Positions 3,799 through 63,591 of a DNA stretch of 64,000 nt are shown here, piece after piece (position 1 is the first letter of the stretch; each line of letters opens with the position of its first letter). Location: positions 8,839 to 72,838 of the forward strand of contig CALLDL010000148.1 in the NCBI GenBank assembly GCA_937998305.1, in the 5' to 3' direction. The notes beneath the pieces are model-generated. The model ran no database searches. It saw only the letters and a program-made list of their open reading frames with translations, and was not told where the DNA came from. Both the position numbers and the translations under genes were made by a program. This stretch comes from an uncultured Desulfobacterales bacterium. GTDB taxonomy: Bacteria; Desulfobacterota; Desulfobacteria; Desulfobacterales; UBA11574.

Positions 3799-4213
3799 AT
3801 CATTTTGTCCTTACATTGTTGAAAGATATAGAACCTTTAAGTAACTCCATCTTCAAATAGCAAATAACAATCAATCCTTCAATTGAGCGTTTTCGATCAC
3901 TATGAGCATAAAATTTCAAGGATTTTCGATTGACCCACACAGGGTTTATTGATATTTATTTTTTCGAGTTGAAGGAGTGCTGTCACCAGTTTTCCTTACT
4001 CAAAGCCTCCACTGAATCCCATTAAACAGGCTTCTTCCATTTCGGTGGAGGCTTTTCTATATCGAATCAATACGTTAAAATCAATAGTTTCTCATCAATT
4101 TAACGTTCACATTATGATAGTGTTTCTATCTTTTGAAAATATATGGCGATTGCCACTTTCATCGATATTCACTTGAATGAGACCTATCCAAGTAACATTA
4201 AATAAGATTTCAG

Positions 4214-57862: not shown

Positions 57863-58651
57863 TCAGCCGATCAATATCAGTCCGCAAACCGTTTCCATGG
57901 AAACCGCATCAGGATCGACATCCCGTGGAGTTTTGTTCGACATCCAGCCGGCCACCTTCTTTAACTTGAGTACGTTGATTCCAAAACCGGACATGGACGG
58001 CCGAGCGAAAAGTGGATTCCGGCATTCGCCATTTTCCGCTAAAACCCGGCAGTCGGAATGATCCCGGCAAAAAATCTGTTTGCAGGAGCCGCCTGCATAG
58101 GCGTTTGAATCTCGAAGCCCCATCTCTATAGCCAACTGTTCGATATTTGCGGCAATTTCATGAAGCAACTGGAATATGTCACGGCGTTCGTTTGAAAGAA
58201 GGATTTCCGAAGGCACATCGATTTTAAAAACTACTGCATGTTTAAAGGTTTTCAGTAATTTTCGAAATCCGGCCGGTCCTGCAACATGAGGGGGACAACC
58301 GGCCGACAAACCGTGGTTTTCACATCGAGGTTCTTGACACAGTTTCGCCAAATCTTCTTCAACTGAGATTTCGGTTGTAGGAATAGCTCTGGCATCGCTT
58401 GCGCCCAATTGACATGCGAGTTGCGTCAGTTCTTTCAGCACTGACCGTACACTATGCCCTGGTGGCTTTTTCTCTGCCATTTTTAACGCTTTGTCATTCC
58501 AAAATACCCTTTTACAGGATGTACACCTGCCATTAATTTCATCTGTCCATATCTCAACTTCCATTCCGCAATCGGGGCAGATATACAACTCCGGTACAGC
58601 CCTTGAAACAGGGTCATTGCCCGGGCATTTGAAATAAAGTTTAGTTCCCAT
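57863..58651 (-). CDS. zinc-ribbon plus DUF2284 metal-binding protein
   Basis: 262 aa. N-terminal CPDCG...CTSC ribbon. DUF2284-like CQEPRCENHGLSAGCPPH and later Cys clusters. Overlaps the upstream gene by 11 nt. Confidence 0.7.
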   Translation of the reverse strand: MGTKLYFKCPGNDPVSRAVPELYICPDCGMEVEIWTDEINGRCTSCKRVFWNDKALKMAEKKPPGHSVRSVLKELTQLACQLGASDARAIPTTEISVEEDLAKLCQEPRCENHGLSAGCPPHVAGPAGFRKLLKTFKHAVVFKIDVPSEILLSNERRDIFQLLHEIAANIEQLAIEMGLRDSNAYAGGSCKQIFCRDHSDCRVLAENGECRNPLFARPSMSGFGINVLKLKKVAGWMSNKTPRDVDPDAVSMETVCGLILIG

Positions 58652-59342: not shown

Positions 59343-59604
59343 TTTCATCTCCTCTCCCATTGAGGCGTCCCTGAATGATGTATACATAATTTTCCTGTTT
59401 GCCCTTTTACCTCGTAACTTGTAACCACCTATATAGTATAGTTTTACAAAGCTCTCTGCTAAACAAACGACAAATCCAATTGTGTACCTATTGATGACAA
59501 CTTCAGACATACATTTATGTGATGAACCTTAAACTTTTTATATTTTTCAGGACAATAGAGCATCTTGAGTGAAAGAGAGTAGATATAGTTTATAAATATG
59601 AAAC

Positions 59605-59940
59605 CTAAAAGACATGAGTTTTAAAAGGAAACGGAAAAATATTGGTATCTCCGTTTTTTGCTCCCGATGCCCGATGGGTTTGTGTATTGGCATACCATTT
59701 TCTTTTGCTCATTTGAAAAAAAGCGTTGGAAAGAGCCACTATGCAGACCTTTCCTCTAGATGAAACACGAAAGGTTTCACCGCCTTTTAATATTCTTTCA
59801 CCCCTTTTTGGCCAGGTTATCCAAAGGGCGCCATATAAACAATGGATCTGAATATCTTTTCCTATGACAGAAAATAGTTGATTTTCTGTCAACTTAATTG
59901 TTGCTTTTTCAACGCCTTTAAATAAAGAAGTTAGTTTCAT
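59605..59940 (-). CDS. DUF2917-like small protein (family call from memory)
   Basis: 111 aa. GALWITWPKRGERILKGGETF resembles the DUF2917 core. It is the first gene after heptamer-repeat promoter c. Confidence 0.45.
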   Translation of the reverse strand: MKLTSLFKGVEKATIKLTENQLFSVIGKDIQIHCLYGALWITWPKRGERILKGGETFRVSSRGKVCIVALSNAFFQMSKRKWYANTQTHRASGAKNGDTNIFPFPFKTHVF

Positions 59941-59995
59941 ATCAACCGCTTTTATTTAAATAAATTGTGCTATGTACACATTTTTTACGGATCAA

Positions 59996-60024
59996 TGATT
60001 AATTTAGAACTAATTGGGGACTAA
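59996..60024 (-). promoter_or_regulatory. heptamer direct-repeat array c
   Basis: The gene strand reads TTAGTCC ccaa TTAGTTC taaa TTAATCA, followed by an AT-rich CGTAAAAAA. Lies about 55 nt upstream of the DUF2917-like gene start. Confidence 0.5.
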
Positions 60025-60201
60025 TTTTTGAAAAGAATATTTTTCTATATTAAAGCCTCAAAATTAATCCCTCTCACCCAAAATCATAAAAGCAAAATCC
60101 GATCAAAAAAACATCAACCATTTGGGGGACGTCTCATTTTTTTATTATTTTCTTGAAAATTCATGAGCCTGAATTTTCACGAGTTGGATGCTTTTCCATT
60201 T

Positions 60202-60996
60202 TCAAACAAGTTTTATCGCTTCAATCATCCCCGATGTTACAACGTCTTCAAGATTTTTTCCTTTGGCGCAATCATTTCCGCTGCCATCATTTAATTGTAT
60301 TTTAATTTTATAAAAACCTGCCTCCTTTAGCATTTTCTTTAGATCATCAATATAGACTGCACCTGCGACACAACCCACATAAAGCGATAAATCCTTTTTA
60401 ATTTTTTCAGGCAGAGGCGCTGTGGCAATCATATCGGAAACGGTAAAACGTCCGCCGGGTTTTAAAACTCGAAACGCTTCAGCAAACACTCTGGGCTTGT
60501 CAGGAGAAAGATTAATAACACAATTGGAAATTATCACGTCTACAGATGCATCAGCCACCGGTAGATTCTCAATCTCTCCCAATCGAAATTCAATATTTTT
60601 ATACCCGTATTTTATTGCGTCATTACGGGCTTTTCTCAACATCTCCGGCGTCATATCCACCCCAATGACATGTCCGGTGTTCCCCACTTTTTTAGCCGCA
60701 AGAAAGCAATCCATACCGCCCCCGCTTCCCAAATCGAGGACGGTTTCTCCAAATTTAATCACCGCTATTGCACACGGGTTTCCGCAACCGAGCCCCATCA
60801 GGGATTCTACAGGAATATTTGAAATTTCCTGTTCAGAATATCTAAAGATCTCATGATTTTTTGATGGGGCCGGTAAAGGTTTTGTTTCACAGCAGGAGGA
60901 CGCTGTCGAATAACAACCGGGTTTCTTTTGTATAGCTATCTCAGCATAGTGCCGACGTACTTCCTGTATTATTTCATCGTTTTGGATATGTTTCAT
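60202..60996 (-). CDS. ArsM-like SAM-dependent methyltransferase
   Basis: ATG 60996 follows AAGGGGG. SAM motif VLDLGSGGGMDCFLAAKKVG, an N-terminal Cys pair (SSCCETK) and VIISNCVINL. The shared ECF-type promoter lies inside the longer track ORF, so the start at 61077 is rejected. Confidence 0.8.
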   Translation of the reverse strand: MKHIQNDEIIQEVRRHYAEIAIQKKPGCYSTASSCCETKPLPAPSKNHEIFRYSEQEISNIPVESLMGLGCGNPCAIAVIKFGETVLDLGSGGGMDCFLAAKKVGNTGHVIGVDMTPEMLRKARNDAIKYGYKNIEFRLGEIENLPVADASVDVIISNCVINLSPDKPRVFAEAFRVLKPGGRFTVSDMIATAPLPEKIKKDLSLYVGCVAGAVYIDDLKKMLKEAGFYKIKIQLNDGSGNDCAKGKNLEDVVTSGMIEAIKLV

Positions 60997-61034
60997 GATG
61001 CCCCCTTTTAATTCGAATTGTGCTCTTTTATTAA

Positions 61035-61063
61035 TAGACGAAGATTTTTTGTAAAGGACGCAA
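61035..61063 (-). promoter_or_regulatory. ECF-type promoter TTGCGTCC-N15-CGTCTAT upstream of the arsM-like gene
   Basis: The gene strand reads TTGCGTCC tttacaaaaaatctt CGTCTATTAAT. The -10 element ends 38 nt before ATG 60996. The same two boxes with the same spacer length occur at 61829-61857. Confidence 0.65.
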
Positions 61064-61264
61064 CATCTTTCGGACATTTACCTGGATTTTGCACGAGCTT
61101 GAGGCTTTCATATGCAAGTATCTGACAACATGACAAATAAACATCTATGGCTTGCCCGAAAGGTGAAAATATTTAAGTAAAACGAGTCAATTCATTGGGT
61201 GACAAGGTGTGACTTTGAAAAATTAGTCGGTAGTAAAGCCTTGTTATAAAGCGACGGGATTTAA

Positions 61265-61810
61265 TCAACCATTCGTAGAAGATTGTTCTTTAGGTTCATA
61301 ATCGATTATTTTTCCGAACCTATCCAATTCAAAATGACAGCATTCCGTCAACATATTTTTGAGTTTTTCTCTGGCTCTTTGTGACCTGGATTTGGCTCCT
61401 GAAAGAGATAATCCGAGCTTTTCTCCCATCTTTTTCTGGGTTAATCCTTGATATGTTGTTAGAATAACCGCTTGACGGTACTTCTCAGGCAGCCGGTCAA
61501 CCATAGCCTCAATACATGGAAGTACATCAACATCATCGTTAATATCAGAATTTTCTAAACTCGTTATTGTTTCCGGAAGCTCTGCCGTGGTCTTTTGGCT
61601 TCGATAATAATCAATAATTGCATGTCGAGCAATTTGATATATCCAGCCACGCAGCCTGCGGATATCTTTAAGAGTGTCTATTCGAGAATGAATCTTAACA
61701 AATACTTCCTGAAGAATATCGTCAGCAATACTTTCGTCTGAAGTGCGTTTCAGGATAAACTGTCTGAGATTAGCGCTGAATTCTCTCCATATATTTTCTA
61801 TGCTGGTCAT
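61265..61810 (-). CDS. ECF sigma-70 factor, SigZ-type with Cys-containing C-terminal extension
   Basis: 181 aa. Region 2 (DILQEVFVKIH...RGWIYQIARHAIIDYYR) and region 4 (LTQKKMGEKLGLSLSGAKSRSQRAREKL), then TECCHFELDRFGKIIDYEP. Confidence 0.85.
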   Translation of the reverse strand: MTSIENIWREFSANLRQFILKRTSDESIADDILQEVFVKIHSRIDTLKDIRRLRGWIYQIARHAIIDYYRSQKTTAELPETITSLENSDINDDVDVLPCIEAMVDRLPEKYRQAVILTTYQGLTQKKMGEKLGLSLSGAKSRSQRAREKLKNMLTECCHFELDRFGKIIDYEPKEQSSTNG

Positions 61811-61828
61811 TCGCTTTTCCTTTATATA

Positions 61829-61857
61829 TAGACGAATTTTCCTTGAAAAGGACGCAA
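61829..61857 (-). promoter_or_regulatory. ECF-type promoter TTGCGTCC-N15-CGTCTAT upstream of the sigma factor gene (autoregulatory)
   Basis: The gene strand reads TTGCGTCC ttttcaaggaaaatt CGTCTATATAT. It ends 18 nt before the sigma gene ATG (61810). CGTC in the -10 is the hallmark of ECF promoters. Confidence 0.65.
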
Positions 61858-61991
61858 AACAAGTTGTACTTTTTGTTGTCTTCAGGGCAGTTTAACGTCT
61901 TACCCAGGACTTGATATAGCATCCTTCAGTACAATGCGCCACTCTGGGCAGCATAAATCGCGTCACAATCATCACCCCCTTATCATTATCT

Positions 61992-62261
61992 TCATTCGAG
62001 TCTTTTGCAAACCTCCCGGTATTGGTTGAACACCCTGCCAGAGGAAACAGCCATAACAATCGCCTGGATCGTACCCAGTTCTGCTTCTGAAACGCCTTTA
62101 TCTGCGGCGACACCGGTAAGCTTTTCCATACACGGATAACAACCTACGGCCATTGCTGCGCCCATTTCAATCATAAATGTCGTTTTGGGATCTATAACAT
62201 CATTTGATATTATGGACTTATGAAAATCAATAAAACTCTTTTTCAAGTTCTCGGGGATCAT
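61992..62261 (-). CDS. carboxymuconolactone decarboxylase (AhpD-like) family protein
   Basis: 89 aa. FIDFHKSI...DPKTTFMIEMGAAMAVGCYPCMEK, including the CxxC motif. Confidence 0.75.
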   Translation of the reverse strand: MIPENLKKSFIDFHKSIISNDVIDPKTTFMIEMGAAMAVGCYPCMEKLTGVAADKGVSEAELGTIQAIVMAVSSGRVFNQYREVCKRLE

Positions 62262-62688
62262 TACACTCTCCTTTCATTAACCTAAATTGATCGTTTCAAG
62301 TAGTGACAAAACAATAAAAAACCTTATTACCTTAAATCATTACATAACATTTATACTATTATAGGTTCTCACCTGTTAGGTGTAGATTCGCTTGCCTAAA
62401 AAGTCACGATTTGAAACCTTTGGGCTTGCCGATTTTATCAAATCTGCTGCGTTATGAGATATTTGCGGTAGCATACTACAGCTGCATATCTCAATGCCTT
62501 GCATCTTCACCAAACTCGGCAATCGCTCAATTTAGGAATTGGTTACGGGTTTTTGTTGTTGGGTTCATGAACCATACATAGGCTTGACTTTTATTGCCTA
62601 TCGGTATATTCGAATACAAAATATTAGATATCGAGTCAAACGATTTGTTTCGATCGAACCGATCGGAATTAGTGAACGGAGGGAAAAA

Positions 62689-63591
62689 ATGGAAATTCGT
62701 CAGCTTAAAACCTTTCGAACCGTGGCCCAATTGCTGAGCTTTAAACAAGCCGCCCAACATCTTCACTATGCCCAATCCAGCATATCCGCGCAAATTCAGG
62801 CTTTGGAAGAAGAACTGGGCGTACAGCTATTTGACCGCTTGGGAAGAGGCATTTTGCTGACCGAAGCCGGGGTCAGCCTGATGAACTATGCTGAAAAAAT
62901 ATTGGATCTGGCTGATGAAACCCGAACTGAAGTGGCTGCCGCCAAAGAGCTGAAAGGTTCGTTGACCATCAAAGTACCCGAAACTTTTGGCGTTCATCGG
63001 TTGCCGCTTGTTATCAAGCAGTTTCGGTCTCGTTTTCCAAAGGTCCGATTACATTTCACCACCTGTACCCATGAAGGCCTTCAGAAAGACCTTAGAAAAG
63101 GCGTCACCGATCTGGCATTTTTGCTGACAGAGTCGTTTCAGGCTGCCGACCTTGAAGCTGAAGCCTTAGGTGTCGAAACGTTGATACTGGTGGCCCACCC
63201 CGACCACCCGTTGATAAATGAACCAGTGGTTCACACTAAAGATCTTAAAGGTGAAACTCTACTTTTTTCAAAGGTGGATTGCAGTTACAGGAGAACAGTA
63301 GAAGCAGCGTTTAAGATGGAAAAAATTCGATATGATAACACACTCGAATTTAACAGCGTGGAAGCAATCAAACAGTGCGTCATGGCCGGTGTAGGCATTA
63401 GCATCCTCCCCGAAATTACCGTAGCAAAAGATATTTCCAAGGGACGTCTGGCCGCTCTACCCTGGGATGAAGGAGCACTGGAAGTTGCCGCCTTAATGAT
63501 ATGGTACAAAGACCGGTGGCTTTCTCCAACCTTGAGTGCTTTTATGGAGACTGTCAGGAAAGTGTTGACAAAGGCACACGACTTAAACTGA
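62689..63591 (+). CDS. LysR-family transcriptional regulator
   Basis: ATG 62689 follows GGAGGG. HTH segment MEIRQLKTFRTVAQLLSFKQAAQHLHYAQSSISAQIQALEEELG. The track start at 62539 is rejected. Confidence 0.88.
   Translation: MEIRQLKTFRTVAQLLSFKQAAQHLHYAQSSISAQIQALEEELGVQLFDRLGRGILLTEAGVSLMNYAEKILDLADETRTEVAAAKELKGSLTIKVPETFGVHRLPLVIKQFRSRFPKVRLHFTTCTHEGLQKDLRKGVTDLAFLLTESFQAADLEAEALGVETLILVAHPDHPLINEPVVHTKDLKGETLLFSKVDCSYRRTVEAAFKMEKIRYDNTLEFNSVEAIKQCVMAGVGISILPEITVAKDISKGRLAALPWDEGALEVAALMIWYKDRWLSPTLSAFMETVRKVLTKAHDLN

Follow-up and report, generated by a model that had tools for sequence, protein, structure and literature searches.

The stretch of DNA analyzed here (64,000 nucleotides (nt) from an uncultured Desulfobacterales bacterium, hereafter the window) encodes on its minus strand an extracytoplasmic function (ECF) sigma factor of the SigZ family, followed by a homologue of the arsenite methyltransferase ArsM, and the same bipartite box precedes each of these two genes, sigZ and arsM. 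From comparisons across genomes we conclude that the two boxes are, with high probability, promoters recognized by σZ, and that they would define a two-promoter regulon consisting of sigZ, as an autoregulated gene, and arsM. This arrangement had been proposed in a first-pass annotation of the window; its observation of the two boxes was confirmed, and, within the reach of sequence comparison, its interpretation is supported as well. The motif is conserved in position and orientation and, in the genomes compared, appears to be confined to those with a SigZ-family gene. Its recurrence in other bacteria suggests that SigZ-family sigma factors, rather than the usual repressor ArsR, control genes for arsenic handling by activating them.

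Read on the minus strand, the site upstream of sigZ (P_sigZ) is TTGCGTCC-ttttcaaggaaaatt-CGTCTA(TATAT), and the site upstream of arsM (P_arsM) is TTGCGTCC-tttacaaaaaatctt-CGTCTA(TTAAT). This reading bears out the previously described common features, an 8-mer, a spacer length of 15 nt and a CGTCTAT box, and the two spacers also agree at 10 of their 15 positions. From the end of the CGTCTA box to the ATG behind it, the distance is 18 nt for the sigma factor gene (ATG 61810) and 38 nt for the methyltransferase gene (ATG 60996), and transcription from P_sigZ would be predicted to start at about 61826-61823. Both sites fit the pattern of ECF-type promoters, in which two elements are spaced by about 16-17 nt, the −10 element is of the CGTC type, and the promoter lies 20-60 nt ahead of a start codon and on the gene strand. 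A promoter and terminator scan revealed no σ70-type promoter directly before sigZ or arsM. Since an Rfam scan of positions 59500-62800 returned no match, the 268-nt spacer between sigZ and arsM holds no known riboswitch or leader. In the host assembly (3.35 Mb in 239 contigs, 43% G+C), the genome-wide search suggested in the annotation located TTGCGTCC-N15-CGTCTA exactly twice, with no other sites at up to one mismatch, and a reversed-pattern control with the same tolerance gave no matches in the whole assembly. Looser patterns added only scattered singletons. A position-specific matrix built from other genomes scored P_sigZ at 34.6 bits and P_arsM at 26.9 bits, while the third-best site of the host genome, at 18.5 bits, stayed below the maximum of 20.4 bits reached in the reversed genome. 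The regulon detectable here therefore consists of P_sigZ and P_arsM, and a wider regulon was rejected because no further site exceeded the control score in this assembly, which is about 88% complete.

The product of sigZ has the architecture of group 4 (ECF) sigma factors, consisting only of σ2 and σ4 joined by a linker (PF04542 and PF08281). Its designation as SigZ-like was well founded, as the protein passes the cut-offs of both SigZ equivalog models, NCBIfam TIGR02959 and NF007215 (224.5 versus 212 bits and 218.5 versus 168.65 bits). In an AlphaFold model with a mean pLDDT of 77.6, a helical σ2 (residues 4-73) is followed by a disordered linker (75-95), by σ4 (96-157) and, after the σ4 recognition helix, by a tail that forms a β-hairpin (158-162 and 168-173). 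A structure search with this model retrieved only generic ECF sigma factors, the best being σH, σW, σL and σE. The only cysteines are C99, C157 and C158, the last directly followed by H159. C157 and C158 open a tail of the SigZ type, CC-x-[FI]-[EQ]-x-D-x-x-G…Y, of which C157, C158, D163, G166 and Y171 are invariant in 51 sequences; σ4 contains G138, which is likewise invariant, and S141. As had been stated in the annotation, no anti-sigma factor gene is adjacent, the neighbors being a gene for an AhpD/CMD-like protein (the CMD gene), arsM and a gene for a LysR-type regulator; the spacer between sigZ and arsM holds no candidate open reading frame for an anti-sigma factor either. The lack of a cognate anti-sigma factor encoded nearby is a property of the ECF238 group, in which SigZ has been placed together with CorE2 (PMC7826278).

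With 343 bits, the downstream gene product exceeds the cut-off of the arsenite methyltransferase model NF008823 (263 bits), and none of the four ArsM cysteines is missing, so that the ArsM-like designation also stands. It contains a class I SAM methyltransferase domain (PF13847 at 2e-42), and its closest solved relatives are the ArsM structures 5evj and 4fr0. The cysteines are found at C35/C36, C71 (GLGCGNP), C159 (ISNCVINL) and C209 (YVGCVAGA), the reference positions being Cys44, 72, 174 and 224 of CmArsM. C71, C159 and C209 align with 5evj; C35/C36, which lies beyond the printed alignment, was assigned by position. The enzyme is predicted to be an As(III) methyltransferase, its own substrate being uncertain because the genome holds three further ArsM-like paralogues. 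ATG 60996, which the promoter position had been taken to favor, is supported as the start codon because homologues align from residue 1, the gene calls in close relatives are 264 amino acids (aa) long, a ribosome-binding site (AAGGGGG) precedes it, and the alternative longer open reading frame from 61077 would include P_arsM. The three paralogues are located at C216:1990-2775, C154:322-1017 and C25:17609-18142 (contig and positions). The one on C25 has an in-frame TGA codon and is a possible selenoprotein, and ArsM-like genes containing TGA are also found in several relatives.

Table. Features of the sigZ-arsM region of the window, and genes found behind the box in other genomes (L numbers designate loci; aa, amino acids; SAM, S-adenosylmethionine).
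Feature	Position or loci	Strand	Remarks
P_sigZ, predicted σZ-dependent promoter	61829..61857	(-)	-35 TTGCGTCC 61857-61850; T-rich 15-nt spacer; -10 CGTCTA 61834-61829
P_arsM, second predicted σZ-dependent promoter	61035..61063	(-)	-35 TTGCGTCC 61063-61056; -10 CGTCTA 61040-61035
sigZ, 181-aa SigZ-family ECF sigma factor	61265..61810	(-)	Pfam, NCBIfam, AlphaFold
Cys99 codon, linker end / σ4 start (VLPC99IEA)	61514..61516	(-)	candidate third thiolate ligand
Conserved tail C157-C158-H159-F-E-x-D-x-x-G-x-x-x-x-Y	61286..61342	(-)	residues 157-175; vicinal Cys pair and β-hairpin
arsM-like gene, 264-aa SAM-dependent arsenite methyltransferase homologue	60202..60996	(-)	start ATG 60996
AhpD/CMD-like protein gene, 89 aa	61992..62261	(-)	PF02627; CxxC (C41, C44); upstream of sigZ
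σ70-like promoter before CMD gene	62358..62386	(-)	TCTACA-17-TATAAT, 10/12 matches
LysR-type regulator gene, divergent	62668..63591	(+)	start codon as called; adjoins CMD gene in close relatives too
sigZ itself behind box	at least 7 loci		
arsM, or arsM-sigZ operons, behind box	at least 9 loci		
DUF2703 proteins behind box	L012, L017, L032, L033, L037		L032 by N-terminal sequence only
ArsP_1-type permeases behind box	L014, L026		
ArsI/CadI-type glyoxalases behind box	L030, L034, L041		L030 by N-terminal sequence only; L041 general Glyoxalase family only
56-72-aa Cys-rich peptides behind box	L022:2948-3148, L023:4656-4826, L024:7875-8093, L040:3740-3937, L044:3741-3923		

The motif was followed through 37 loci with SigZ-family genes (L011-L047) and, as a control, through 43 loci of other ECF sigma factors obtained in the same scan (L048-L090). 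The SigZ loci come from Chloroflexota, Bacillota, Verrucomicrobiota, Pseudomonadota, Actinomycetota, Planctomycetota, Bacteroidota, Acidobacteriota, Lentisphaerota, Calditrichota, Ignavibacteriales and Binatia. A relaxed pattern produced matches beside the sigma factor gene in most of them, and 28 seed sites selected for strict spacing gave the consensus tTGCGTCCTTTT-N11-CGTCTaTA. The spacing is fixed at 16 nt in these seed sites, and two further candidate sites have 17 nt. At a threshold of at least 14 bits, the matrix detected 45 sites in the SigZ loci (554 kb in total), of which 40 share the strand of the sigma factor gene; the count of 45 is partly circular because the matrix was trained on these loci themselves. 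The same matrix detected no site in 644 kb around the other ECF sigma factor genes, and this control, together with the relatives lacking SigZ and a number of later, independent loci, provides checks that are free of the circularity. In 60 relatives of the same genus, family and order that lack SigZ (best match to SigZ 34% identical), TGCGTCCTT-N13-CGTCT matched once in total, exactly as often as its reversed-pattern control. A box before sigZ, or before operons in which sigZ follows a target gene, was found in many other phyla, and the boxes and the sigZ-arsM pairing recur in at least ten bacterial phyla. Among 401 genomes of the host's own phylum that were sampled with the SigZ model, there were four other carriers; at each of the three loci that could be evaluated, the motif is present and an arsM gene is adjacent, the fourth locus ending at a contig edge. 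The motif is thus conserved upstream of orthologous sigma factor and methyltransferase genes, both in close relatives and across phyla; its absence there had been named in the annotation as evidence that would speak against the regulon.

The close relatives comprise seven loci from metagenomes or metagenome-assembled genomes, whose sigma factors are 65-88% identical to that of the window. P_sigZ lies at exactly the same distance from the ATG codon in five of the seven, and P_arsM is present in five of the six loci that have arsM downstream. In these relatives the letters of the spacer differ, and the intergenic length varies from 144 to 275 nt through large insertions and deletions. Apart from the ribosome-binding site and the start codon, TTGC(G/A)TC(C/T)TTT…CGTCTA is the sole long and nearly invariant block in the sigZ-arsM spacers of six loci. 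These comparisons bear on the idea that the two copies in the window are a chance resemblance, or a functionless local duplication of AT-rich intergenic DNA. The similarity of their spacers would fit a duplication, but it is the boxes, not the spacers, that are conserved in the relatives and across phyla, and this contradicts it. As for chance, the window contains three matches at up to two mismatches (two exact, one with two mismatches), where shuffled sequences lead one to expect 0.23. We therefore regard this idea as exceedingly improbable. It is also very unlikely that the motif is an operator of some other regulator, either the adjacent LysR-type protein or a repressor of the ArsR type. 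A LysR gene is indeed nearby, and sites for regulators can be conserved close to gene starts, but the motif is not palindromic, does not have the T-N11-A form of LysR sites, combines a fixed spacing with an ECF-type CGTC −10 element, and is almost always co-directional with a gene that starts 20-60 nt downstream. Moreover, it tracks SigZ genes across phyla whatever regulators adjoin them. The order LysR, CMD, sigZ, arsM is kept in the relatives L093, L095 and L096, whereas in L091, L097 and L099 sigZ and arsM occur in other surroundings, with the motif present and no LysR gene nearby.

The occurrence of sigZ and arsM in differing surroundings implies that the two-gene unit moves as a module. 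SigZ was found in only five of the 401 sampled genomes of the phylum and in none of 15 genomes of the same genus that were searched. This rare and patchy distribution fits a horizontal acquisition of the sigZ-arsM module, which we consider probable. A metagenomic protein of 196 aa (P0042) that has a sigma-like N-terminus and an ArsM C-terminus probably results from a gene call that spans a sigZ-arsM unit and is frameshifted or chimeric.

Judged from their sequences, the genes recurrently found behind the motif are related to metalloids or thiols (Table). Within 4 kb, 16 of the 37 SigZ loci have an arsM-like gene, versus one of the 43 control loci, and at this one a distant SigZ-like sigma factor is encoded as well. 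Cys-rich, metallothionein-like open reading frames follow SigZ-type promoters in five unrelated genomes; for the one peptide that was scanned against Pfam (from L024), no family was matched. A different arrangement is seen in Bacillaceae, represented by L122 and L123, which belong to the family of Niallia sp. (L037), and by L129, on the Priestia megaterium plasmid NZ_CP071475.1. In these loci the box (TTGCATCT-N15-CGTC) precedes an aldo-keto reductase gene that is divergent from sigZ (L129 site 3927-3963 on the minus strand), and no box was found before sigZ in any of the three. This placement agrees with the literature on Bacillus subtilis, where σZ does not transcribe its own gene and only yrpG and the σB target gsiB have been suggested as targets (PMC4105308), yrpG being the sole neighbor of sigZ among them. 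The Bacillaceae arrangement of sigZ and the aldo-keto reductase gene offers a tractable test system. The motif also agrees with what has been reported on the −35 element of SigZ, in which a C at −34 is aligned with G138 and S141 of σ4 (PMC6713349): when TGCGTC is aligned with the σW sequence TGAAAC, a C occupies this position, and the sigma factor of the window has both residues. A Cys-tailed sigma factor that is about 30% identical to that of the window was also matched in 1,355 plasmid records, mostly from Klebsiella. In the one record inspected, the Klebsiella pneumoniae plasmid NZ_CP044029.1 (L130, 2843-4787), the sigma factor gene precedes TGCATCC-N15-CGTCT, behind which come a permease gene and a gene of the thioredoxin family.

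The cysteines of the sigma factor could make it a sensor in its own right. Among the 120 best database homologues (P0001-P0120), all 117 that are intact have the cysteine pair, and every one of them has at least one further cysteine: 36 have it in the linker, 51 have it behind the hairpin, and 30 have cysteines at both locations. Where the linker has no cysteine, CxC, CC or CxxC is invariably found behind the hairpin, and homologues without tail cysteines invariably have one in the linker, as does the sigma factor of the window. No intact homologue lacks both, where 15.7 would be expected under independence, although this comparison overstates independence because the sequences are phylogenetically related. 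A more diverse set contained one exception, in Rubrobacter (L026). A vicinal cysteine pair with a third cysteine also constitutes the As(III) site of some ArsR repressors, such as AfArsR and CgArsR. Because of this resemblance and because of the target set, we tentatively propose that the most likely ligand of σZ is a trivalent arsenical, As(III) or methylarsenite, which would be bound by Cys157, Cys158 and Cys99. That C-terminal cysteines serve as a built-in sensor is a hypothesis already published for SigZ and ECF238 (PMC7826278).

The module may then work as follows. A basal level of σZ would arise from transcription that starts at the σ70-like promoter ahead of the CMD gene (62386-62358) and continues into sigZ; this σZ would remain inactive until its three cysteines have bound a thiophilic ligand. 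RNA polymerase with ligand-bound σZ would read P_sigZ, resulting in positive autoregulation, and the same holoenzyme would read P_arsM, so that more ArsM is made. The module would be self-contained, its two genes doing without an anti-sigma factor and without ArsR. Because the scheme combines positive feedback with the lack of an anti-sigma factor, it calls for a post-translational gate. For the family at large, it is conceivable, if somewhat short of probable, that SigZ proteins are widespread, ArsR-independent one-component sensors of trivalent arsenicals. The cysteine pair and the third cysteine would bind the ligand, upon which promoters of the form TGCGTCC-N15-CGTCTA would be used, with the sigma factor's own gene, arsM, arsP, arsI, and the genes for DUF2703 proteins and Cys-rich peptides as targets.

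The σZ promoters may also be real while the sigma factor responds to something other than an arsenical, be it another thiophilic metal (Cd, Zn or Cu), thiol oxidation or electrophiles, or while it is controlled at the level of transcription only, for instance with the LysR-type regulator governing sigZ through read-through from the CMD gene. Taken jointly, we hold these variants to be rather unlikely, though far from negligible. ArsM-like enzymes can methylate other metalloids too, and some of the genes targeted in other genomes encode metallothionein-like peptides, CadI-like enzymes or an aldo-keto reductase. For the characterized relatives CorE and CorE2, the signals are Cu and Cd/Zn (PMC4937300). 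On the other hand, ArsM is by far the commonest target, the ArsP-type permease, ArsI and DUF2703 genes are mostly organoarsenical genes, and the cysteine arrangement resembles that of the ArsR sites mentioned above. Control by transcription only would be consistent with the conserved LysR-CMD pair directly upstream, the σ70-like promoter, and the absence of any convincing terminator-like site between the CMD gene and sigZ (none was seen between sigZ and arsM either), but an autoregulated sigma factor without an anti-sigma factor would still need its post-translational gate.

Several further points weigh against σZ-driven, arsenical-responsive control of sigZ and arsM, in addition to the partial circularity of the 45-site count and the relatedness of the sequences in the cysteine survey. 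Neither promoter is obligatory, because two close relatives are without P_sigZ and one is without P_arsM. The classification of ECF238 reports neither a conserved promoter nor autoregulation (supplement of 10.1101/2019.12.11.873521), although it was made at the level of a whole heterogeneous group. The sigma factor of the window has only three cysteines, and its linker is without the CxC motif, which CorE and CorE2 require. Finally, the Cys-rich peptide, CadI-like and aldo-keto reductase targets also fit a broader response to thiophilic metals or electrophiles.

CorE and CorE2 of Myxococcus xanthus (formerly ECF44, now in or near ECF238) are the best mechanistic analogues of the sigma factor of the window, which by analogy may work likewise. 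They too are ECF sigma factors without an anti-sigma factor, and cysteines in their C-terminal extension and in the σ2-σ4 linker bind the inducing metal directly (PMC4937300). However, they have six-Cys domains of 38 and 28 residues in place of C157, C158 and C99, and instead of arsM they control genes for metal efflux and for oxidases. Lacking the linker CxC of ECF44, the sigma factor of the window was not classed as a CorE-like member. Another close system is σZ of B. subtilis (ECF238 subgroup 9), which belongs to the same NCBIfam equivalog family, has the tail CC-x-F-E-x-D-x-x-G together with G138 and S141, lacks an anti-sigma factor, and in Bacillaceae relatives is associated with the box before a yrpG-like aldo-keto reductase gene. 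The sigma factor of the window is 47-50% identical to the Bacillaceae and Paenibacillus members. It differs from B. subtilis σZ in that its gene has a box of its own and is paired with arsM, B. subtilis σZ being described as monocistronic, not autoregulated and of undetermined function (PMC4105308). ECF238 subgroup 2, known for example from Klebsiella IncF plasmids, shares a Cys-tailed sigma factor, a TGCATCC-N15-CGTCT box, and permease and thioredoxin-family genes, but it differs in its cysteine layout (C-x-I-R-L-D…CC), in a permease instead of ArsM as target, and in a lower matrix score of 16.6 bits. It is only for this subgroup that a conserved gene context of permease plus thioredoxin was noted (Casas-Pastor et al., supplement of 10.1101/2019.12.11.873521).

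With respect to promoter layout, TGCGTC-N16-CGTC resembles the σW promoters of B. subtilis (TGAAAC-N16-CGTA), both being bipartite with a 16-nt gap, and B. subtilis promoters of the σM and σX types have a similar layout. In the SigZ-type box the −35 core GAAAC is replaced by GCGTC, a difference that should set this promoter apart from the ones recognized by other ECF sigma factors. The T-tract just after the −35 box is again shared with σW (PMC6713349). Operons of arsM and other ars genes that are repressed by ArsR resemble the present system in that an ArsM-type output is produced from a dedicated, signal-responsive promoter, but they rely on a repressor where an activating sigma factor appears to be used here. 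No ArsR/SmtB repressor gene lies in or beside the arsM operon of the window, and no gene for an ArsR-type helix-turn-helix (HTH) protein is present on its contig (C148), the five HTH_5 matches of the genome being on C136, C4, C193 and C216. At C216:1600-2784, a gene for a 105-aa ArsR-family protein (…LLASCCIPG…) is directly followed by the gene of an ArsM paralogue that is 53% identical to the ArsM of the window. From this separate pair it follows that an ArsR-wired and a SigZ-wired arsM gene coexist in the genome.

No paper linking SigZ and ArsM was found in the literature searched, which also appears to contain no description of a connection between SigZ, its promoter and arsM. For the SigZ family, the present data provide a defined promoter, evidence for autoregulation outside the Bacillaceae, and a coherent set of metalloid- and thiol-related targets in many phyla, none of which was reported for ECF238 by the largest survey of ECF sigma factors. 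This is of interest because arsenic genes are the textbook case of ArsR-type repression and the function of σZ is "not yet determined" (PMC4105308). If arsenicals are indeed sensed directly, this would be a new mode of control of arsenic methylation, a process of importance to the arsenic cycle of anoxic sediments and paddy soils. It would also provide a compact, orthogonal, metalloid-responsive pair of sigma factor and promoter for biosensors, and would assign a function to σZ of B. subtilis, the least understood ECF sigma factor of that organism. For annotation, the motif fixes the start of arsM and marks sigZ-arsM as a portable module.

As regards the neighboring genes, the CMD gene has no σZ box of its own and occupies the same position in L093, L095 and L096. 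Its product resembles the AhpD part of the NCBIfam fusion family "ArsM/AhpD selenoprotein". The genes downstream of arsM that encode a DUF2917-like protein, a hydrolase and a DUF2284 protein were considered as σZ targets and rejected, as they carry no box. The DUF2284 gene (57863-58651, minus strand) also flanks the module, and a second fusion family, "ArsM/DUF2284 selenoprotein", exists in NCBIfam. AhpD/CMD-like and DUF2284 proteins may work together with ArsM, perhaps as thiol reductants. In the relative L093 the order of genes is CMD, sigZ and arsM, with the gene for a DUF2284 protein and that for another methyltransferase further along.

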